From the NCBI GenBank assembly GCA_012720075.1, contig JAAXZE010000030.1:24734-88733 (forward strand): 64,000 nucleotides of DNA. Reading direction: 5' to 3'. How positions within the stretch are numbered: position 1 is the first letter of the stretch; each line of letters opens with the position of its first letter. A program made the position numbers and the translations under genes. Below are positions 14,154-63,165 of this stretch, in pieces. The stretch is from Clostridia bacterium. Its GTDB lineage: Bacteria > Bacillota > Peptococcia > Peptococcales > BICA1-8. The notes beneath the pieces are model-generated. The model searched no databases, was not told the DNA's origin, and saw only the letters and a list, made by a program, of their open reading frames with translations.

Positions 14154-14350
14154 AATGTATCCGATGAAAGTAGGTCTTTCGGGATGCATCAGCTTATATG
14201 CAAAATGCATGATGCATCCGATGAACGCCAATTAAAATTGATGCATCCGAAAAATATTACTTAAAAGATGATGCATCCTTTAAGCTAAACCTAGATGCAG
14301 ATGGGTCAGAGATAGTTTAACATTCATGAGATACATCCCAAAAAGTTTCC
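14154..14350 (+). repeat. Family A element, full copy (GATGCATC-rich imperfect palindrome, about 195 bp)
   Basis: Four exact GATGCATC boxes. Ends are inverted: ATGTATCCGATGAAAG at the 5' end, CATTCATGAGATACATCCC at the 3' end. About 88% identical by eye to the inverted copy at 17985-18190. Confidence 0.85.
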
Positions 14351-18357: not shown

Positions 18358-19434
18358 ATGCAGGCCCGGTTAATCAATGAAAATGAACGAGAATATTTTA
18401 ACAATTTTGTGGCCTCCGTTCCGAAAGGACACGTTCTTCAGTCCTATGAATGGGGAGAGATTAAAGCAAAAACAGGATGGAAACCTTTAAGGATGATTGT
18501 TGAGGAGAACGGTCAACCAATTGCTGCCATTTCCATATTAAAGAGAACTATTCCGGGGCTGAAAAAAGCGATTTTTTATGCTCCTCGAGGTCCTGTTGTT
18601 GATATCAATAACCAAAAAGTTTTTGATTTTTTAATGGCTGAAGTAAAAAAACTGGCGCAAAAGCATAAGGCCATTTTTCTAAAAATTGACCCTGATATAC
18701 CGTCAGAAAATAAAGCTTTCAAAGAACTTCTTTTCTCCCGTGGGTTTCGTTCCGCTGAGAAAGGAGAAGGTTTTGAAGGAATTCAGCCCAAATATGTTTT
18801 TCGTTTGGACATTACCCCTGATGAAGAAACCCTATTAGCCAATATGCACAGTAAAACCCGCTATAATATCCGTTTGGCTGAGCGGAAGGGCGTAACAATA
18901 AAAACCGATTGCACTAAAGAAGATTTAAAGGTCTTTTATGACATTTTGTTGGAAACATGTGAAAGGGATAAATTCCTGGTCCGGTCTTACAGCTATTTTG
19001 AAGACATGTGGGATTTCCTGGTAGAACGGGGTTACGGCAAGTTGTTTTTGGCTCAATATGAAGGAAAATATATAGCAGGTACCCTTGCCTTAAATTTCGG
19101 CGAAAAGGCTTGGTACCTTTATGGAGCTTCCAGCAACAATTATCGCAATGTTATGCCCAATTATCTCATTCAATGGACCATGATAAAATGGGCCAAAGAA
19201 ATAGGCTGTACCCTGTATGATTTCCGTGGAGTTCCCGGCGACCTCTCAGAAGATAATCCTTTGTACGGTCTATATAAATTTAAAAAAGGTTTTAACGGTG
19301 TTTATACCGAATTTGTCGGTGAATATGATTTGATTTACTCTCCTTTTTATTATTGGTTATGGCATACCGCCGAACCTATCTATCAAAAAGGGATTCGAAA
19401 ATTTATAGCGTTGAAAAAGAAAATTAAAAAATGA
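18358..19434 (+). CDS. FemAB-family peptidoglycan interpeptide-bridge aminoacyltransferase
   Basis: About 360 aa. FemAB-like sequence (HSKTRYNIRLAERKG, WYLYGASS..YRNVMPNYL). Confidence 0.75.
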   Translation: MQARLINENEREYFNNFVASVPKGHVLQSYEWGEIKAKTGWKPLRMIVEENGQPIAAISILKRTIPGLKKAIFYAPRGPVVDINNQKVFDFLMAEVKKLAQKHKAIFLKIDPDIPSENKAFKELLFSRGFRSAEKGEGFEGIQPKYVFRLDITPDEETLLANMHSKTRYNIRLAERKGVTIKTDCTKEDLKVFYDILLETCERDKFLVRSYSYFEDMWDFLVERGYGKLFLAQYEGKYIAGTLALNFGEKAWYLYGASSNNYRNVMPNYLIQWTMIKWAKEIGCTLYDFRGVPGDLSEDNPLYGLYKFKKGFNGVYTEFVGEYDLIYSPFYYWLWHTAEPIYQKGIRKFIALKKKIKK

Positions 19435-19442
19435 AACTGTAT

Positions 19443-19539
19443 AAGATGCATCAGATGAATGTAAGTCTTTAGGGATGCATCTGCTTTTTAGAAAAAAGCA
19501 TGATGCATCCGATGCATGACCGGTAATTTTGATGCATCG
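19443..19539 (+). repeat. Family A element, 5' half only
   Basis: AAGATGCATCAGATGAATGTAAGTCTTTAGGGATGCATCTGC...CATGATGCATCCGATGCATG...TTGATGCATCG, then switches to family E. Confidence 0.75.
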
Positions 19540-19552
19540 ATTATCTACTATT

Positions 19553-19627
19553 TGACATCGTGTCATCGTGTCACAGTGACATCAATTTTTAGTTGGAAAA
19601 GTTAGAATGTCGGAAGAGTTGGAAAGG
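19553..19627 (+). repeat. Family E (GTGACATC/GTGTCATC/GTGTCACA) plus family F (GTTGGAAAA-type) arrays
   Basis: TGACATCGTGTCATCGTGTCACAGTGACATC, then AATTTTTAGTTGGAAAAGTTAGAATGTCGGAAGAGTTGGAAAGG. Confidence 0.8.
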
Positions 19628-19664
19628 AACATATTCTTTGTCATAGAATAATAGATACCTAAAA

Positions 19665-19803
19665 AATAATTCTCAACTCTCCACTCACACACTTAAATGT
19701 TCCAGTCACCAGTCACCAGTCACTAATTGGTAGATTACTGGGCACAGGGCACTGGTCACTTGGCACGGGACAAAAATTTTAACCCAAAAGTTCAGACAAG
19801 CCA
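19665..19803 (+). repeat. Composite G(inverted)-B-H-I upstream of alr
   Basis: AATTCTCAACTCTCCACTC; CACACACTTAA; CCAGTCACCAGTCACCAGTCACTAAT; TACTGGGCACAGGGCACTGGTCACTTGGCACGGGACAAAAATTTTAACCCAAAAG. Confidence 0.8.
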
Positions 19804-19826
19804 GCCCCTAATCCCTTAAAGAAGAG

Positions 19827-21017
19827 GTGTTCCTGTTGTACAAGTGGATAGAAATTGACTTGGATGCAATTAAAAATAACTTTTTACAGGTTAGGCAGTA
19901 TATAAATGCCCAAACTAAAATCTTAGGGGTTGTTAAAGCTGATGCCTATGGCCATGGATTGGTGGAGGTAAGCAAAGAATTGGAGCGGCAAGGCATTGAC
20001 TACCTGGGAGTTACGGAGATTGCCGAGGGTATTAAACTTAGAGAAGCCGGGGTAAAAACTCCCATCCTGGTCTTCGGTCCTTTTTTGCCCGAAGACGCCG
20101 GTTCTTTTCAGCAGTATCAGTTAACTGCCACTTTGTCCTCACTATCTATGGTCGAAAAGCTGATTGATTTGGGCTTGAGCCTGACGGTCCATTTAAAAAT
20201 AGAAACCGGTTTTGGCAGGACCGGATTAAAATATGCAGAATTGGATAGGCTTGTTGAACTGCTTAATAATAATGAAAACATAAATATTGAGGGGATCTAT
20301 TCCCACCTGGCGACCGGTATGTGGGCCAATCCTTCCTTTGCCAAACAACAGTTTAGTGTTTTTTTGCAAGCTGTTGAATTTTTAGAAGACAAAGGTTTAA
20401 TGATTCCCCTTAAACATATCTGTAACAGTGCAGCCTTGGTAAAATTCCCGGAGATGCACCTGGATATGGTCCGAGCCGGGACAATCCTTTATGGTCAAGA
20501 AGCGGCGGGTCGGGAAGATTTTAAAGGCCATTTGCAAAATGCCTGGAGTTTAAAAGGACAGGTTACATATATTAATGAATTGCCTAAAGGCCATTCTATC
20601 GGTTATGAGCGGACTCATATTTTAAAGGCTCCCTCCAAAACGGCTATTGTTCCCATAGGGTATAGCCATGGCTTTTCCGTAGAGCCTGTTCCCAAACCTA
20701 AGGGGGTTTTGGACTTAATAAAAGTTGTTGGTAAAATAATTCTCCGGTTTTTTGATCATCCAAAAGTTAAAGTTTATGCTCAAATAAGAGGTAAAAGTGT
20801 CCCTGTTCTGGGGAAGGTGGGCATGCAGATGACCGTTTTTGATGTTACCTCCATACCCGACTTGAAAATAGGGGAAATTGTCCAGCTCCCGGGAAGACGG
20901 ACCAATATAAGTCCCTTGCTGCCGAAGGTGTATTTAAAGGACAAAAAACCTGTGAGTGTCAGCAAAATCGATGAAAAATATGAGCAAATTGGTAATATTT
21001 TTTCTTTGCAGGATTAA
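19827..21017 (+). CDS. alr: alanine racemase
   Basis: GVVKADAYGHG PLP-lysine motif and W.EIDLDAIKNN N-terminus. Start is uncertain: GTG 19827 or TTG 19836. Confidence 0.85.
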   Translation: MFLLYKWIEIDLDAIKNNFLQVRQYINAQTKILGVVKADAYGHGLVEVSKELERQGIDYLGVTEIAEGIKLREAGVKTPILVFGPFLPEDAGSFQQYQLTATLSSLSMVEKLIDLGLSLTVHLKIETGFGRTGLKYAELDRLVELLNNNENINIEGIYSHLATGMWANPSFAKQQFSVFLQAVEFLEDKGLMIPLKHICNSAALVKFPEMHLDMVRAGTILYGQEAAGREDFKGHLQNAWSLKGQVTYINELPKGHSIGYERTHILKAPSKTAIVPIGYSHGFSVEPVPKPKGVLDLIKVVGKIILRFFDHPKVKVYAQIRGKSVPVLGKVGMQMTVFDVTSIPDLKIGEIVQLPGRRTNISPLLPKVYLKDKKPVSVSKIDEKYEQIGNIFSLQD

Positions 21018-28140: not shown

Positions 28141-28252
28141 ATGAATGCCATTTTTTATTGATGCATCCGATGAAATCGGTCTCTTGGGATGCATCTACTA
28201 TTTAGTGATACTGAATGATGCATCCGATGAATGATAATTTTTTGGATGCATC
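28141..28252 (+). repeat. Family A element, rearranged partial copy
   Basis: Four GATGCATC boxes. Starts with the central box (ATGAATGCCATTTTTTATTGATGCATCC) followed by the 5' box. Confidence 0.7.
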
Positions 28253-28271
28253 TTACTAAAGAAGTTATCAT

Positions 28272-29607: not shown

Positions 29608-29960
29608 GGGATGGCATTATGGCTTTGGGGTTAAAGAATCGGTCTGCTTGACGGCTAAAAGACCAATTTTTCTGGACCGCATGACGTCTTCTAAGCAAAA
29701 TTATAGGTCAGCATGACGTCTGCCGGGAAAACTTTTCCGTCAGCTTTTGTAATTCATTAAAATTAGATTTTTCGGTCGCTTCTTCCCCGGATAGCACACT
29801 GTTAACTGTATAAATTAAGGACCGACCCAGGGAATTAGCCTATAAGACGTCACACCGTCCTGCATTTTAACCCCAGAGCCGTCACACCGACCAAAAATTT
29901 AACCCGTAAGCCGTCATACCGACCTAAAAAATAACCCGAAAGGCATAATATCGGCCTGCA
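29608..29960. repeat. Family J inverted array (left arm about 29608-29745, right arm about 29815-29960; right arm has a 32-33 bp period)
   Basis: Left arm: TTGACGGCT, CGCATGACGTCTTCT, GGTCAGCATGACGTCTGCC. Right arm: GACGTCACACCGTCC..., then GTCACACCGACCAAAAATTTAACCCGTAAGCC, GTCATACCGACCTAAAAAATAACCCGAAAGGC and ATAATATCGGCCTGCAAAATAACCC, with cores at 29848, 29881, 29913 and 29945. Confidence 0.8.
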
Positions 29961-29992
29961 AAATAACCCATATAGGCCATAAGCACTCCCTC

Positions 29993-30021
29993 TTGACTCA
30001 TAAAAATAAAGAATATATAAT
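29993..30021 (+). promoter_or_regulatory. sigma-A-type promoter for rpmE
   Basis: TTGACT, 17 nt, TATAAT. Lies immediately downstream of the family J right arm. Confidence 0.8.
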
Positions 30022-42724: not shown

Positions 42725-42956
42725 AAGTGACATTGTGTCATCGTGCCATCGTGACATCGATTTTCAGTTGGAAAAGTGGGATGTTGGAAGAGTTGGAAAA
42801 GAAGATTAAAGGTTACGTCAACTTCGTTGACTAGTTTTTGCTTCGCTAGGTTGAGGTTGACTAATTGTATTAGGGCAGCGAACAAAAAGCCAGTCACAGG
42901 GCACAAGACCAAAAACATAGCCCAAAAGTACAAACAAGCTCGGTCACCAGTCACAG
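42725..42956 (+). repeat. Composite E-F-C-I-H upstream of mntP
   Basis: AAGTGACATTGTGTCATCGTGCCATCGTGACATCG; ATTTTCAGTTGGAAAAGTGGGATGTTGGAAGAGTTGGAAAAG; AAAGGTTACGTCAACTTCGTTGACTAGTTTTTGCTTCGCTAGGTTGAGG; CAGTCACAGGGCACAAGACCAAAAACATAGCCCAAAAG; GGTCACCAGTCACAG. Confidence 0.85.
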
Positions 42957-42972
42957 ATTTTAGGGGGTCATT

Positions 42973-44722: not shown

Positions 44723-44828
44723 AAAGGTTAAGGTTCCGCTCACTTCGTTTCGCTAGGTTAAGGTAAAAGGTAAACATAATTTTTGGTTACTGAATATTGG
44801 GCACGGTCCCGAAAAATGCCGTCAAAGG
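44723..44828 (+). repeat. Family C block plus a degenerate family I unit
   Basis: AAAGGTTAAGGTTCCGCTCACTTCGTTTCGCTAGGTTAAGGTAAAAGGTAAAC, then GGTTACTGAATATTGGGCACGGTCCCGAAAAATGCCGTCAAAGG. Confidence 0.7.
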
Positions 44829-44845
44829 ATATATGGGGTGAGAAT

Positions 44846-45394
44846 ATGTTTAGCCTTGAGCATATAAAATCTGACACCCAAAAGGCTGTAAAAGAATTAT
44901 TAAAGGTAGCAAATCTTAAGGCCGGCCAGGTCCTGGTAGTGGGGTGCAGTACCAGTGAAATAGCCGGTCAAAAAATAGGTTCGGCCGGCAGTATCGAAAT
45001 CGCTGAAGCGGTTTTTTCCGGTTTGCTGACTTATCTTTGTGAACAAGGCATTTATTTGGCTGTTCAGTGCTGTGAGCACTTAAACAGGGCCTTGGTTGTA
45101 GAACAAGAGGCCCAGGAAAAGTATGGCTGGGAAGAGGTAACCGTTGTACCCCATCAAAAAGCAGGTGGATCCCTGGCAACAGTTGCGTATAGAAAATTTG
45201 AAAAGCCTGTTGTGGTAGAAGAAATAAAAGCTCATGCAGGTATAGATATCGGAGATACTTTTATTGGTATGCATTTAAGGAAAGTAGCGGTACCGGTTCG
45301 CTCTGAGATAAAATCCATTGGCCATGCCCATTTGACCATGGCTCGAACTCGTCCTAAGTTAATCGGCGGTGAGAGAGCAAAATATTGTTTGTAG
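44846..45394 (+). CDS. ywlG: TIGR01440/YwlG-family protein
   Basis: VVGCSTSEI and QCCEHLNRAL motifs. Bacillus ywlG position. ATG 44846 follows GGGGTGAG. Confidence 0.7.
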   Translation: MFSLEHIKSDTQKAVKELLKVANLKAGQVLVVGCSTSEIAGQKIGSAGSIEIAEAVFSGLLTYLCEQGIYLAVQCCEHLNRALVVEQEAQEKYGWEEVTVVPHQKAGGSLATVAYRKFEKPVVVEEIKAHAGIDIGDTFIGMHLRKVAVPVRSEIKSIGHAHLTMARTRPKLIGGERAKYCL

Positions 45395-45412
45395 CTTTTT
45401 GGTCATCATTGA

Positions 45413-45769
45413 GCGACAGACAACTGCTTCTTGGTTAATTTGTCCCGTCAGACAATTGCTCTTAGGTTTTCATTTTGCGACAGACAATGGCGCTAGGTTA
45501 ACATATTCCGTTAGACAATTTCTACTAGGTTTTAATTTATTCCGTCAGACCATTGCTTAAGGGTTGATTTTTCCGTCTGACAATCTGGTATTTGGTTTGA
45601 AATATGATAACTGTAGAAATATCTGACGGAATAAACAGTCCAAATATTATATCAGACGCAAAAATATGGCAATATAGAAAATCTGACGGAATAGTAAGAC
45701 GTAAGGGTATGTCTGACCTAATAGCAAAGTTTAAAAGCAAAGTCAGACGTAAAAGCTTAACCCAATGAG
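45413..45769. repeat. Family K inverted array: about 5 left-arm units (CGTCAGACAAttgc...) and about 5 right-arm units (cTGACGgaa/caaaa...), period about 30-33 bp
   Basis: Left unit starts near 45413, 45446, 45478, 45509 and 45543. Turn at 45574-45622. Right unit starts near 45623, 45653, 45683, 45713 and 45742. The last unit, GTCAGACGTAAAAGCTTAACCCAATGAG, runs into the glyA RBS. Confidence 0.85.
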
Positions 45770-45790
45770 TAAAAAAAGGAGGATACCATT

Positions 45791-47029
45791 TTGGACTACA
45801 TAAAAGAATTTGTATTGCCTACAGATCCTGAATTAGCTGAAGCGATTTTTAAGGAGGAGGAGAGGCAGCATAACAAAATTGAATTGATTGCGTCCGAGAA
45901 TTTTGTCAGCAAAGCGGTCATGGCCGCCCAAGGTTCGGTAATGACCAATAAATATGCCGAAGGATATCCCGGCAAAAGATACTATGGCGGTTGCGAGTTT
46001 GTTGATATAGCTGAAAACCTGGCCAGAGAGAGGGCCAAAAAGCTTTTCGGAGCGGAACATGTTAATGTGCAGCCCCATTCGGGGGCCCAGGCCAATACTG
46101 CCGTATATTTTGCCATTCTTAAACCTGGTGATACGGTATTAGGAATGAATTTGAGCCATGGCGGTCACCTGACCCATGGAAGTCCTGTCAACCTTTCGGG
46201 TATGTATTTTAATTTTGTGGCCTATGGCGTTGATAAAGAAACGGAAACCATTGATTATGATCAGGTAATGGCTATTGCCAAAGAAGCAAAACCAAAACTC
46301 ATTGTTGCCGGGGCCAGCGCTTACCCCCGGGTAATCGATTTTGCCAAGTTCAGAGAAATTGCTGATGCCGTTGGAGCTTATTTAATGGTGGATATGGCCC
46401 ATATCGCGGGATTGGTTGCGGCGGGACTTCATCCCAGTCCCATTCCCTATGCCCATTTTGTGACTACTACAACCCACAAAACCTTAAGGGGTCCCCGGGG
46501 CGGCATAATCCTTTGCAAAGAAGAGTTTGCCAAGGATATTGATAAGGCCATCTTCCCGGGAATTCAAGGGGGACCGCTGATGCATGTCATTGCCGCCAAA
46601 GCGGTAGCCTTCCATGAGGCATTGCAACCGGAATTTAAAAAATACCAGCAACGGATATTGGAAAATGCGCAGGCTTTGGCTCAAAATCTTCAGGAAAAAG
46701 GTTTCCGGCTGGTTTCCGGTGGTACCGACAACCATCTTATGCTGGTAGATTTAAGACCTAAGGGGCTAACCGGCAAAGAAGCCGAAAAATTATTGGATGA
46801 AGCCGGAATCACCGTAAATAAAAATACAATTCCTTTTGACACGGAAAGTCCCTTTGTGACCAGCGGCATCCGCATTGGTACACCGGCGGTAACAACGCGG
46901 GGTATGGGAACTGCCGAGATGGCTGAAATAGCTAATCTAATCAACACCGTTCTTGTTGAGAAAAAAATTGATGAAGCCAAAGCAGGTGTCAAGGCCCTGA
47001 CCCAGAAATTCCCACTGTTTCAATACTAG
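45791..47029 (+). CDS. glyA: serine hydroxymethyltransferase
   Basis: ELIASENF and [14 protein letters not shown] (PLP-lysine) motifs. TTG start after AAGGAGG. Confidence 0.95.
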
Positions 47030-47076: not shown

Positions 47077-47250
47077 ATTAACGGATGCATCCGATGAAAG
47101 TAAGCCTTTGAGGATGCATCTGCTTACAAGGAAGATGCATGATGCATCCGATGAATGCCAATTTAAATTGATGCATCCTTTAAGCTATACTCAGATGCAG
47201 ATGCGTCAGGGATGATTTTCATGCATGAGATACAACCCAATAAGTCACCT
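47077..47250 (+). repeat. Family A element, full copy with short internal deletion
   Basis: CGGATGCATCCGATGAAAGTAAGCCTTTGAGGATGCATCTGC...ATGCATGATGCATCCGATGAATGCCAATTTAAATTGATGCATCC...CAGATGCAGATGCGTCAGGGATG...CATGCATGAGATACAACCCAATAAGTCACC. Confidence 0.85.
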
Positions 47251-47933: not shown

Positions 47934-47935
47934 CT

Positions 47936-48173
47936 CACGGGTTAATTTTTTGGTCAGCATGACGGCTTAAGGGATATTTATTTGGGTCAGCATGACGGCT
48001 TACCGGTTAAAATGCACGTCAGCGATTAAGTTTTTTATATTAATACTGAAGCTATTCCTTTAAATATCGGGCTGACGGAAAATATAAACCACAGAGACGT
48101 CATGCTGACATTCTGAATAGCTTAGGAGACGTCAGGCGGACCCAAAATGTTAGCCCAGAAGTAAAAACGGGGG
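47936..48173. repeat. Family J inverted array between upp and comEB
   Basis: Left arm: GGTCAGCATGACGGCTTAAGGG (47952) and GGGTCAGCATGACGGCTTACCGG (47984). Right arm: CTGACGGAAAATATAAACC, GACGTCATGCTGAC (48096) and GACGTCAGGCGGACCCAAAATGTTAGCCCAGAAG, which runs into the RBS. Confidence 0.85.
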
Positions 48174-48638: not shown

Positions 48639-48825
48639 TTGTAGTCCTACAGTGCTACAGTTCTACCGTTCTACAGTAAAAAAGGTTGAGGTTTCGCTAC
48701 GCTAGATTAAGGTTGAGAATTCACACTAACACACTAACACACTTAATTATTACTGGGTACTGGTCACTGGACACTGGGCACAAGACCAAAAAAGTTAACA
48801 CATAAGTCCGGCCACCGGTCACTAA
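48639..48825 (+). repeat. Composite D-C-B-I-H upstream of the MazG-like gene
   Basis: TTGTAGTCCTACAGTGCTACAGTTCTACCGTTCTACAG; AAGGTTGAGGTTTCGCTACGCTAGATTAAGGTTGAG; TCACACTAACACACTAACACACTTAA; TACTGGGTACTGGTCACTGGACACTGGGCACAAGACCAAAAAAGTTAACACATAAG; CCGGTCACTAA. Confidence 0.85.
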
Positions 48826-49153: not shown

Positions 49154-49200
49154 TTGCAGATTGAGAACAATGCTTTGTATCTACATTGCCGCAGAGAATA

Positions 49201-49347
49201 AGATTGAAGATTAAGATTTCGCCAACTTTGTCGGCTAGTTTACGCTTCGCTAGGTTGAGGTTGAGAACTTAAATAATTCTCAACTCTCCATTCTCAATTC
49301 TCAATTAATCTTAAGCACTTACACACTAACACACTCACACACTAAAA
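49201..49347 (+). repeat. Composite C-G(inverted)-B upstream of wecB
   Basis: GATTAAGATTTCGCCAACTTTGTCGGCTAGTTTACGCTTCGCTAGGTTGAGGTTGAG; AATTCTCAACTCTCCATTCTCAATTCTCAATT; CTTAAGCACTTACACACTAACACACTCACACACTAAAA. Confidence 0.85.
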
Positions 49348-57865: not shown

Positions 57866-57950
57866 AATTGCTTATTGTGCTAAGCAATTAGCCTAAAACA
57901 GATACACCGCAGTCTATATATATAGACTGCGGTATATCTGTTTTAGGTTT
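57866..57950 (+). terminator. tandem hairpins after atpC (9-bp stem, then a 56-bp near-perfect palindrome)
   Basis: AATTGCTTA/TAAGCAATT at 57866-57889. CCTAAAACAGATACACCGCAGTCTATAT / ATATAGACTGCGGTATATCTGTTTTAGG at 57892-57947 with one mismatch, then TTT. Confidence 0.55.
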
Positions 57951-57985
57951 AAAACCAATACTAATTATATAAATAAAAAACAAAA

Positions 57986-58107
57986 GGCTGACGGAAAATG
58001 AAACCAATTAGCCGTCATGCAGACCCCAAAAATGGCTTCCAAGTTGTCATGCGGACTTGAAAAGTTTGCGTGAAAGCCGTCATGCCGACCCCATAATAAC
58101 CCGAAAG
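57986..58107 (+). repeat. Family J right-arm array (4 units) upstream of the yueI-like gene
   Basis: GGCTGACGGAAAATGAAACCAATTAG / CCGTCATGCAGACCCCAAAAATGGCTTCCAAGTT / GTCATGCGGACTTGAAAAGTTTGCGTGAAAG / CCGTCATGCCGACCCCATAATAACCCGAAAG. Confidence 0.8.
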
Positions 58108-58124
58108 AAATATGGGAGGATACA

Positions 58125-58487
58125 ATGGAAAAATCCGAACTGGAGAAATTTTTAGAAGTAGGAATTCATGGAACCCCTGAACTAAAAAGTGAAGAAAAAA
58201 AGATTTATCTCGGGTGCTTCCGGGAAAGGATTCTTAAGGTTCTAACCAAGAAGCAAGTGACGGAGAAAGGAACATATAAAGAAATTTTAGACGCCATTCG
58301 GGACAAGCGGGCTAAAAGACTGATTGTTTCCAATGACGTTCAGCTTTCGTCCGCCATGGATTATATAAACCTTGCAAAAGATAACGGTTTGGAATTTACG
58401 CTGGTAGACGGTGATGATTATACCGGTGATATTGGCTTGGTGGTTGTCAGTGATACTGCGGTGGATGAAGAAAACATTTTTGTCTAA
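58125..58487 (+). CDS. YueI-like (DUF1694) protein
   Basis: 120 aa. FLEVGIHGTPELKSEEKK..LG.FRERI pattern is recalled from the DUF1694 family. Confidence 0.55.
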   Translation: MEKSELEKFLEVGIHGTPELKSEEKKIYLGCFRERILKVLTKKQVTEKGTYKEILDAIRDKRAKRLIVSNDVQLSSAMDYINLAKDNGLEFTLVDGDDYTGDIGLVVVSDTAVDEENIFV

Positions 58488-58501
58488 TAGGTTAAAGTTT
58501 T

Positions 58502-58848
58502 CCGACAGATAATTACTCTGGGGTTAAATATCCCGTCAGACAACTGCATTTGCTTAAAGTTATCGGGACAGACATGGCTAAAGGGTCAAACTCTTGCGTC
58601 TGACAAGGCTTCTTCGCAGATAATTACTTGTCAGACCCAAAATGTTCACTGAGCAGTAAGTTAGACGGAAAAGTAGTTATATTTTTTTGTTAGACGCGAA
58701 AATAAAACCTGTCAGTCAATGTCAGACCCAATATGTTAACCGTAAAGGTAAATGTCAGACGCAAAAGCTAAACCTATAAGTCAAATCTGACTAAATATAA
58801 TAATCATAAAGTATTTATCTGACGCAAAATCTAAACCCACAAGTACCC
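58502..58848. repeat. Family K inverted array (about 3-4 left-arm units, 7 right-arm units) between convergent genes
   Basis: Left arm: CCGACAGATAATT.., CCGTCAGACAACTGC.., GGGACAGACATGGC.. . Turn: CGTCTGACAAGG. Right unit starts near 58630, 58662, 58691, 58721, 58754, 58787 and 58819, e.g. GTCAGACCCAATATGTTAACCGTAAAGGTAAAT. Confidence 0.85.
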
Positions 58849-60384
58849 TCATTCTATCTTTATAGTCACTTCCGGCACTACCTTTGCTTCAAAGGTCCTG
58901 CTCCAAGGCAGTTCAATAAGGGCTGAAATATTTTCCACCCGGAATTTTATCTTTCCTATAGTATATTCCCCTAGAAAAACCTGTCTTAACTTTTCCTCAT
59001 AAGGAATAAATAATTCAGCCAGGATTTTATTGCCGGTGCTGTGTTTTTCACCTATATTAAGGGGATCAATATTTAATTGGGTCAATCTTTCATTTAATTC
59101 TTGCCGTAATATTCCCTGGTATATTAAATCTTCCGCCAACCTAATATATCTAAACTTTATATAAGCCTCCAGAGCTTCAATTTGTTCCTTCTTAGTAAAT
59201 CTTGGGTATCTTTCCTCCAAATATTGATAGGCGGCTGCATGGGATAATTCGGTCCCTATGGTATTTCCGGCAGTGTTCCATCCTGCATACCCTTTCACCT
59301 TTGGCCAATTATCCGGAGAAAGCAAAATTTCCAGCAACTCGATATCTCCTTTATTGGTAAAGGCAATATCCATAACACCCAGATAAGAAGCTTGGCTTTT
59401 CTCCAGCATATGTAGCAAGGCATCGACCTTTTGGGGGTCGGTATGAACAATGAAGTTTACATCCGCTCCGACATCTTTGGAAAAACCTAAATAATCAAGT
59501 TTTGTATTGATTACTTCCTCCAATGGAGCAGCCTCAAAAGGAAAATAAACATTTAGGAATTCTTTATTGGTATAGCCCGGGGTAAAATTTGGTTTTTCTT
59601 TAAAGGCAAGCTCCCGGACTAAAGCCAGCATGGTCAGTTCATCGGCACCATGGACAAATCGTACCTTTTCGTTAAACAGGGGCTTTAAATCCCGGATTAT
59701 TTTGTTGCTTAAGCCGTATTGTTCCGCATCATCCTGACCTATTAGGTAATGGTCGATTAAACCTTCTTCCGTAAATTCAATTAAACTCTTTACTAAGTCA
59801 TAGGTATTTTCATAAATACTAAAATACTCTTTCCAAATATTTTCCGGCAATTGCCCGGGAATATCAGGAAAAGGTTTTCCCTCCAGGCTGTTTTTATCTA
59901 TTTGCTGAGCGTAATCAATTAAAAGCTCTTGATAATCCCAAAGATGGGTAAATTGACTGGGCAGCAATCTGGGAAGAATGGTTATTACGATAATCTTTTT
60001 CCCCCTGTTTTGCCTGCAGAAAGCTTCCAGCCGGGATATTTTTCCCTTTATTTCCGTATAGGATTGGGGTTCACGGGAGGCAATAAGACCGCCGTTAAAA
60101 AGTTGGTTTGTATTAATGATAATTTTTTCAAAACTTTTCCCGTTTGCTTCCAACCACGACCAGAGACTTTCAGTCTCGGCAGGCTCTAAAAAGTTATCTA
60201 AATAATTGTAGGGAATAACAATTTGTTTATTGGTCATCTGACCCAGGAGCTCAGGAAATTGGGTATTGCAGGGCCTGCTATCCAGAGGAATCAAAGCCAC
60301 TTTCTCCGGGGCCTGTTTCCATAACCCATAGCCTATGGATATGATAAAAAATAAGACAAGCAATGTAATTACTAATTTTTTCAT
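58849..60384 (-). CDS. DUF4127-family protein with N-terminal signal/anchor
   Basis: About 510 aa from ATG 60384 (MKKLVITLLVLFF), after GGAGTG. The ORF-track start 60495 lacks an RBS. The family call is from memory. Confidence 0.55.
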   Translation of the reverse strand: MKKLVITLLVLFFIISIGYGLWKQAPEKVALIPLDSRPCNTQFPELLGQMTNKQIVIPYNYLDNFLEPAETESLWSWLEANGKSFEKIIINTNQLFNGGLIASREPQSYTEIKGKISRLEAFCRQNRGKKIIVITILPRLLPSQFTHLWDYQELLIDYAQQIDKNSLEGKPFPDIPGQLPENIWKEYFSIYENTYDLVKSLIEFTEEGLIDHYLIGQDDAEQYGLSNKIIRDLKPLFNEKVRFVHGADELTMLALVRELAFKEKPNFTPGYTNKEFLNVYFPFEAAPLEEVINTKLDYLGFSKDVGADVNFIVHTDPQKVDALLHMLEKSQASYLGVMDIAFTNKGDIELLEILLSPDNWPKVKGYAGWNTAGNTIGTELSHAAAYQYLEERYPRFTKKEQIEALEAYIKFRYIRLAEDLIYQGILRQELNERLTQLNIDPLNIGEKHSTGNKILAELFIPYEEKLRQVFLGEYTIGKIKFRVENISALIELPWSRTFEAKVVPEVTIKIE

Positions 60385-60570
60385 GGTTCGCACTCCGGTT
60401 TTCTTTTTCGCTTTTCCAATACCAACCTCTGTTTTGCTTGCTGCTATCGGTAATATTAACACATTTTTTTCTTTGTACGCACCGTTTAATTCCAATAAAG
60501 TAATTATAATAAATAGTCTGCCCTTTTTCTATTAGATTTTGAATAATATAGCAATTAATGGAAAGAATAA

Positions 60571-62990: not shown

Positions 62991-63165
62991 TTAAATGATG
63001 CACCCGATGAAAGTTAATCTTTGGAGATGCATCTGCTCTTAAGTAAAATGCATGATGTATCCATTGCATGCCAATTTAAATTGATGCATCCCTTTAAGTA
63101 ATTCCAAGGAGCAGATGCGTCAGGAAATATTTAACATCCATGAGATACATCCCAATAAGTTTACT
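62991..63165 (+). repeat. Family A element, degenerate full copy between the murA stop and its terminator
   Basis: Same box order as the other copies, with point changes (GATGCACC, GATGTATCC). Followed by the intrinsic terminator at 63194-63219. Confidence 0.8.

Follow-up and report, generated by a model that had tools for sequence, protein, structure and literature searches.

Convergent arrays of a polar 31-bp repeat in the intergenic spacers of related Bacillota genomes

Introduction

Intergenic repeats of the REP/BIME, BOX and NIME kinds are common, and both their function and their upkeep are largely unsettled. In Proteobacteria, REP/BIME clusters reportedly occur with RAYT transposases of the Y1 type. 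The arrays described here, called K arrays after the family letter given in a preliminary description of the same DNA, work most like such clusters or like multi-site transposon ends. They share with REP/BIME clusters a high copy number, an extragenic location, clustering of units in opposite orientations, a copy number per cluster that varies between relatives while the consensus is kept over the long term, a position mostly between co-directional or convergent genes, and recognition by a protein, which for K is putative. The REP unit, however, is an imperfect palindrome with a GTAG-type head and alternating orientation, whereas K units have no fold of their own and form two homogeneous blocks with strict 31-bp phasing. 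Because K units are not palindromic, the defining feature of a REP is absent, and a RAYT gene flanked by K units was found neither in about 45 K loci nor in the window, by which we mean the whole 64-kb stretch of DNA analysed here. Work on REPINs (PMC3116915) belongs to the literature on such clusters.

Other systems resemble the K arrays in narrower respects. The ends of Mu-, Tn7- and IS21-type elements likewise consist of polar sites of about 22-30 bp, direct within an end and inverted between ends, that are read as duplex by a multi-domain protein (again putative for K), but K arrays lack cargo, show no target duplication, have up to 13 sites per arm at a regular three-turn spacing, and are conserved vertically at orthologous positions. 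Pneumococcal BOX elements (boxA-boxB(n)-boxC) and mycobacterial MIRUs are also intergenic and modular, with a variable number of tandem middle units, a predicted stem-loop and a frequent location inside operons; BOX, however, joins three different modules where K has two inverted blocks of one unit, and MIRUs are direct repeats with small ORFs, which K units cannot be since 31 bp is not a multiple of 3. The foldback (FB) elements of Drosophila have long inverted arms of short tandem repeats, including a 31-bp unit, but are eukaryotic elements of kilobase scale whose mobility has been demonstrated. Cyanobacterial STRR heptamer arrays and small dispersed repeats, reportedly described in 2008, resemble the K-bearing genomes in their tandem-heptamer spacers, nested small conserved repeats and restriction to one coherent clade, but belong to another phylum and have other sequences; we know of no 31-bp phased arrays among them.

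Here we describe the anatomy, distribution and divergence of the K arrays. With a probability that we put at about 0.42, K units are read as double-stranded DNA by a putative, possibly transposase-derived protein, the hairpin that the arms can form being a by-product. This reading is favored because three tests found no selection for pairing between the arms.

Results

The first array fills the spacer between a DUF436 gene of the YwlG family and glyA (Table 1). Its first unit adjoins the DUF436 stop codon at 45392-45394, and its right end lies 7 nt 5′ of the glyA Shine-Dalgarno sequence (AAGGAGG, 45777-45783), where the preliminary description had the final unit running into the ribosome-binding site. 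The glyA start codon, TTG at 45791, agrees with the BRH_c20a orthologue, which has MDYIKEY at the same place. The preliminary description had counted about five units in each of two opposed arms and placed the turn at 45574-45622; the opposition and the turn both stand, with the counts corrected to six and five units and the turn to 45579-45623 between core centers. Units repeat every 30-34 bp, against the 30-33 bp first read, and core and inter-core sequence are semi-conserved as had been stated, the conserved unit being longer than the earlier core and divided into three blocks. It was fair to call the array one large degenerate palindrome; folded as RNA, it is predicted to form a long bulged hairpin. 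The only public contig that encodes exactly this GlyA (Logan contig SRR31940690_93749) begins inside the array at window position 45532, from which it appears that the array breaks short-read assemblies.

The same architecture had been reported at 58502-58848. A second array is indeed present there, starting slightly further to the left, but it is not symmetrical, with four forward and seven reverse units. It exactly occupies the gap between the stop codons of the convergent DUF1694 and DUF4127 genes. A scan of the 64-kb window with a position matrix built from the 22 units of both arrays detected no third K array.

Table 1. Coordinates of the K arrays, their neighboring genes and other repeats. 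Positions are those of the window unless a locus of another contig is named.
Feature	Positions	Strand	Remarks
K array 1, whole	45393..45770	.	6 forward units, turn, 5 reverse units
Array 1, forward arm	45393..45583	+	six 31-34 bp units (..GGTTaa..T.TTsCGTCWGACAA); matrix scores 20.0-27.5 bits; core centers 45418, 45450, 45482, 45513, 45547, 45578
Array 1, turn	45584..45618	.	no unit; 46 bp between innermost cores
Array 1, reverse arm	45619..45770	-	five 30-31 bp units; matrix scores 16.3-25.7 bits; core centers 45624, 45654, 45684, 45714, 45745
DUF436 gene (YwlG family)	44783..45394	+	upstream of array 1; PF04260, 2.3e-81
glyA (serine hydroxymethyltransferase)	45777..47029	+	Shine-Dalgarno included; PF00464
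K array 2, whole	58482..58848	.	4 forward and 7 reverse units
Array 2, forward arm	58482..58606	+	core centers 58507, 58538, 58570, 58601; 16.6-27.4 bits
Array 2, reverse arm	58628..58848	-	seven units, 9.9-29.6 bits; core centers 58633, 58663, 58692, 58724, 58757, 58788, 58820
DUF1694 gene	58125..58487	+	ends at left edge of array 2
DUF4127 gene	58849..60495	-	ends at right edge of array 2
Further 32-bp-period arrays	29640-29990; 47935-48165; 57980-58110		variant cores
Tandem-repeat spacers, window	19540-19830; 42727-42960; 48640-48800; 49190-49345		and many further Tandem Repeats Finder rows
Tandem-repeat spacers, BRH_c20a L047	1990-2200; 6190-6510; 7160-7340
Dispersed GATGCATC-rich repeat	47079-47239; 63026-63154; 28163-28260; 14181-14277; 19430-19540
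Long near-perfect hairpin	57893-57950		downstream of atpC
MFS transporter gene, BICA1-8 L044	4205-5570		between two copies of one K unit
K unit, BRH_c20a L035	5900-5950		one copy of the same unit
Extra sequence after K array, L012	4785-5834		about 1 kb
Palindromic insert, BRH_c20a L033	1975-2070		at turn of array 2 orthologue
Y1_Tnp + Bac_DnaA_C copies, BRH_c20a L148	7378-8343; 11168-12133		identical, 3.8 kb apart
Y1_Tnp-like ORF, L083	6440-7134		157 aa
High-GC arrays	L074 1592-2632; L055 6170-6447; L100 2826-3084		and about 24 other CXWL01 loci

The K unit is polar and non-palindromic, with a conserved span of about 28 bp composed of the three blocks TACT, GGGT.AA and T.TTGCGTCWGACA (TACTt..gGGT.AA..T.TTGCGTCWGACA). 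The consensus over 290 units is TACTt..gGGT.AA..T.TTGCGTCTGACA, with about 20 informative positions, and is identical in both arms and across five genomes. The TACT block lies outside the detection matrix and so confirms the consensus independently. The only symmetry inside the unit is the 7-bp GTCWGAC, and single units folded as hairpins reach 0 to -2.2 kcal/mol, no better than shuffles. Chance does not account for the arrays: CGTCAGAC occurs 3 times in the window against 0.39 expected, GTCWGAC 10 times in 64 kb against 2.1 expected with all 10 occurrences inside the two arrays, and a spaced pattern of three cores matches twice in the window, at these arrays and nowhere else, against 0.00 in 100 shuffles. 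Tandem Repeats Finder independently reported a period of 31-32 with 4.5 copies. The periodicity holds once units are aligned computationally, with a centre-to-centre spacing within arms of 31.06 +/- 0.92 bp (n = 191; range 29-34 bp). Small ORFs running through the arrays are ruled out, as a 31-bp unit shifts the frame at each repeat. In the spacer upstream of glyA, the polar 31-bp repeat genuinely forms an array whose two arms point at each other.

The three-core pattern matches 53 loci in species-representative genomes. About 42 of these belong to four MAGs of related, uncultured Bacillota (Clostridiaceae bacterium BRH_c20a, with 24 loci alone, Peptococcaceae bacterium BICA1-8, Clostridia bacterium DJKA51_ANT-F21_bin.3 and Bacillota Betzabe_MAG005), the others being scattered singletons; metagenome contigs also contain K arrays. 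The preliminary description would have been refuted had no further arrays existed elsewhere; about 45 could be scored in the four MAGs. The forward block precedes the reverse block in every scored cluster, including 26 two-armed arrays at a stricter cut-off, and the opposite order has 0 cases in about 60 clusters. Unequal arms are frequent (6/13, 7/1 and 4/7 units), one-armed arrays occur, and an arm may hold up to 13 sites. The full-text literature returned no description of these arrays. The family looks like a lineage-specific intergenic repeat of the same general kind as REP/BIME clusters, and as far as the literature can be searched it appears to be undescribed.

In the window and in BRH_c20a, tandem repeats of 6-8 bp make up nearly every spacer as a mosaic with nested inverted arms, built on motifs such as CAGTCAC, CACACTTA, AATTGAG, GTGACATC and GGTTAAGG, and small GC-rich hairpins are also nested as inverted pairs in the spacers that hold K arrays. 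Further arrays with a 32-bp period in the window keep the K scaffold (core, AAAA, AACC) around other cores, GGTCAGCATGACG / CCGTCACACCGACC and GTCATGCAGAC, and their units form either inverted arms or a right arm that leads into a ribosome-binding site. A further repeat, about 100-160 bp long and with many GATGCATC motifs, is dispersed over the window and recurs at two BRH_c20a loci (L021 and L013).

The preliminary description offered a second reading, in which a transcript that reads through the spacer folds into a long bulged hairpin. Such an RNA might be processed by RNase III, stabilize 3′ or 5′ ends, insulate one cistron from the next or, where genes converge, terminate transcription in both directions. 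This is indeed the predicted minimum-energy fold of both arrays, with modest z-scores of -2.7 and -4.8, but a long hairpin is the automatic consequence of inverted arms, and the selection for pairing that the proposal implies did not appear in register, strand or G.U tests whose power is limited by their 193 units and about 250 transitions. Opposite-arm units in matching register resemble each other no more than unmatched units do (0.447 versus 0.431). The sense strand folds no better than the antisense strand (13 versus 7 arrays, mean difference -2 kcal/mol), and the variant array at 29630-29995 folds far better on the non-coding strand, at -121 kcal/mol for the minus strand versus -81 for the plus strand on which both flanking genes lie. 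The transcribed strand has no excess of transitions that a G.U pair would tolerate (odds ratio 1.16, p = 0.59). In array 2, GTCAGAC stands on the same strand in both arms, which places an A.A mismatch in most core pairs. Unequal or single arms are common and yet their units are conserved, a partnerless arm of four units being about 93% identical between two species, and the specific unit sequence that is kept is one that a plain stem would not need.

Scans for known RNA elements and signals gave no support to a transcript-level role. Rfam had no matches at gathering score in the whole window and, at a permissive threshold in the array, only two eukaryotic families at chance level. A riboswitch or T-box upstream of glyA is ruled out by the lack of a curated covariance-model match, and an intrinsic terminator by the lack of a G+C-rich stem with a T run in or at the edge of either array; promoter and terminator scans gave matches at background level only. 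Elsewhere in the window, a long near-perfect hairpin downstream of atpC (cctaaaacagatacaccgcagtctatatatatagactgcggtatatctgttttagg) is a candidate for a conventional terminator, which indicates that the genome also uses ordinary stem-loops.

Several features nonetheless speak for an RNA element. The arrays abut a stop codon on one side and a ribosome-binding site or second stop codon on the other, and 30 of the 36 arrays whose flanking contexts were recorded lie between co-directional genes, with 4 between convergent and just 2 between divergent ones. Foreign inserts sit at array centers, where the loop would be. Counting against the duplex reading, K arms share their spacers with unrelated 7-8-mers and GGTTAAGG hexamers in nested inverted pairs, a pattern expected if a hairpin of RNA or single-stranded DNA were the selected or generating structure. 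We consider an RNA element unlikely, and since K arms and unrelated repeats nest in this way we keep an RNA or single-strand hairpin as a serious rival to recognition of the duplex.

Comparison of orthologous sites bears on how the arrays are maintained. Two loci of one BRH_c20a contig (L047 and L033) are syntenic with the window at 40.9-48.6 kb and at 56.9-63.8 kb, their nucleotide identity to it being about 76%, and the two spacers that hold arrays in the window are both occupied in BRH_c20a with different unit numbers. Orthologous K sites were also found between DJKA51 and BICA1-8, BRH and DJKA51, and BRH and BICA1-8, and none of the sites compared was empty in either species. Between BRH_c20a and BICA1-8, identity is 0.96-0.97 at codon positions 1+2, 0.80 at third positions and 0.876-0.927 in the K arrays, the last figure resting on about 300 aligned array bases. 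Identity outside the core is 0.52 within an arm, 0.49 between arrays of one genome, 0.45 between genomes and lowest, at 0.43, between opposite arms of one array. Array identity above that of third positions, together with the evenness of the non-core similarity, implies that the unit sequence is constrained or continually homogenized; concerted evolution by gene conversion could mimic purifying selection on the units. Judged from these alignments, the arrays are old residents of their sites rather than recent insertions.

The two species differ mainly by insertions or deletions of whole units or of three units (96 bp). Such changes, together with higher-order repeats, would be natural in a passive minisatellite, in which neutral slippage and inverted duplication generate the arrays and nothing recognizes the unit, and the same may be said of the mosaics of short tandem repeats that make up almost all spacers in the window and its relatives, and of the recombination between units that seems to have removed or added a gene. 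Neutral drift is harder to reconcile with some 20 informative positions kept in five genomes whose third codon positions have diverged far more, with units of different arrays and genomes that are nearly as similar as neighbors, with spacing confined to 29-34 bp, and with an invariant order of the arms. We hold a minisatellite of this sort to be improbable.

Individual loci record other changes. In BICA1-8 two copies of one K unit (GTGTCAGACGCAATATTTTTnCCC) enclose an MFS transporter gene, and the BRH_c20a counterpart has one copy of that unit and no transporter gene; going by the sequences, the difference probably arose by gain or loss of the gene through recombination between K units. About 1 kb of extra sequence directly follows the K array at locus L012, where DJKA51 (L037) has about 70 bp. 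The orthologue of array 2 in BRH_c20a is interrupted precisely at its turn by a palindromic, GC-rich insert (gtcattgcgaagg...cgcgatgac) and has GGTCCCT heptamer repeats at its right edge.

Analogous arrays occur in about 27 metagenome contigs (CXWL01 loci) of an organism of 65% GC that is betaproteobacterium-like in gene content. The unit there is a 25-bp TGGTGTCAGGTCTGACATTCGGACA followed by a 6-bp linker at an exact 31-bp spacing, with 2-4 direct copies, a unique center of 70-130 bp and 2-4 inverted copies. The linkers are A4 or T4 tracts, in one orientation or the other, and such tracts matter for DNA shape, not for RNA pairing. The GTCTGACA core common to the K and high-GC families was imposed by the search pattern and is therefore no evidence of common descent. 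The gene that lies between the two arms at L074 encodes a 296-aa protein with a C-terminal helix-turn-helix and a Y1 transposase domain (PF01797, 2e-12); this protein scores 72.5 bits against the NCBIfam model for REP-associated tyrosine transposases (cut-off 80). This layout can thus belong to a REP/RAYT-like system, and the high-GC arrays may be an undescribed REP/RAYT variant with non-hairpin units. A scan of viral contigs with the high-GC unit gave zero matches, and BLAST of a high-GC array against 72,556 plasmids gave none.

A cognate K transposase was sought by homology to the high-GC RAYT. A gene combining Y1_Tnp and Bac_DnaA_C domains, present in BRH_c20a, BICA1-8 and relatives, was rejected because it has its own ends and no K flanks; it forms an IS-like element with terminal inverted repeats GGGGTCAGGCTTTTATAA, also seen at L175 and at L177, where the ends are tandemly duplicated, and BRH_c20a has two identical copies. 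Members of this family are common across Clostridia (867 homologues at E <= 1e-20). A small Y1-like ORF (L083) with a weak Pfam match was rejected as well, being accompanied by GTAG-type GC-rich hairpins and not flanked by K units; the hairpins (GTAGGGGCG...-type), which lie before and within the ORF, look like classical REPs, and the ORF itself has an MreB-like gene on one side and, on the other, a K right arm that precedes a flagellar rod gene. As neither candidate is flanked by K units, the link between Y1 transposases and K was dropped. Neither a binding protein nor a gene with K arms on both sides turned up among about 45 K loci or in the 64-kb window.

With their repeated polar sites the inverted arms look like multi-site transposon ends, many copies of the family exist, and the analogous high-GC family flanks a Y1 transposase gene, all of which would suit a classical MITE or foldback element inserted whole and moved by a transposase encoded elsewhere in the genome, but we regard this as very improbable, as neither window array shows a target-site duplication (the edges are stop codons or a ribosome-binding site), copies share neither center nor inter-core sequence, every orthologous site compared is occupied, viral contigs scanned with the K pattern and a BLAST of one K array against 72,556 plasmids gave zero matches, and the ORFs adjoining K arrays include no recurrent transposase. 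A CRISPR array is ruled out by semi-conserved inter-core sequence and by units in two opposed blocks. The Tn3 38-bp inverted repeat (which shares TCTGACGC), the Neisseria DNA-uptake sequence (CCGTCTGA), GntR/DasR operators (GTCTAGAC) and Spo0A, SpoIIID, ECF-sigma and CggR sites are short chance matches or have the wrong spacing.

Discussion

Recognition of K units as duplex DNA is the reading that best accommodates these observations. The conservation of a long polar sequence at a three-turn spacing marks an array of sites recognized in duplex form, and the K arrays have polar sites at integral helical turns with a sequence kept independently of pairing. The high-GC arrays, with their like layout and exact 31-bp spacing, provide an independent parallel. 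The preliminary description proposed that three-turn phasing would place a bound protein on one face of the DNA; the spacing, the polarity of the unit and its slow divergence all fit that proposal, and the binding itself we infer. The working part would be the polar three-block unit of 31 bp, TACT-GGGT.AA-T.TTGCGTCWGACA, rather than the hairpin, read as duplex by a putative sequence-specific protein, most plausibly of a transposase-derived kind. With a unit every three helical turns, the bound proteins would be aligned on one face of each arm, and the arms, always head to head with their GACA ends toward the center, would be laid out like the multi-site ends of Mu- and Tn7-type transposons. 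Arrays keep their intergenic position over very long times, change in size by whole units through slippage or unequal recombination, and accept other small repeats at their center. The complex might serve the host by structuring or insulating DNA locally, or might amount to the mere maintenance of selfish DNA.

A broader proposal is that the K units and the variant 32-bp units make up an undescribed chromosomal cis-element, in which polar, non-hairpin modules for protein recognition form convergent phased arrays that have kept their intergenic positions since before the lineages split, either as a system that structures or insulates host DNA or as an anciently domesticated transposon-end system. 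We advance this as a doubtful possibility. If it were true, the high-GC family with its Y1 and helix-turn-helix gene would be a REP/RAYT-type system in a duplex-read form.

The K family is unusually clean, with a long, polar and non-palindromic unit, exact three-turn phasing and invariant head-to-head arms, and its arrays persist at orthologous sites across deep divergence with no selection for RNA or DNA pairing detected. It thereby separates recognition of the unit from any importance of the hairpin, two properties that are confounded in REP elements. The arrays also appear to act as recombination substrates for the gain and loss of genes. In sum, should a binding protein be found, the K arrays would represent a new DNA-organizing or transposon-derived system in an uncultured subsurface lineage of Bacillota.
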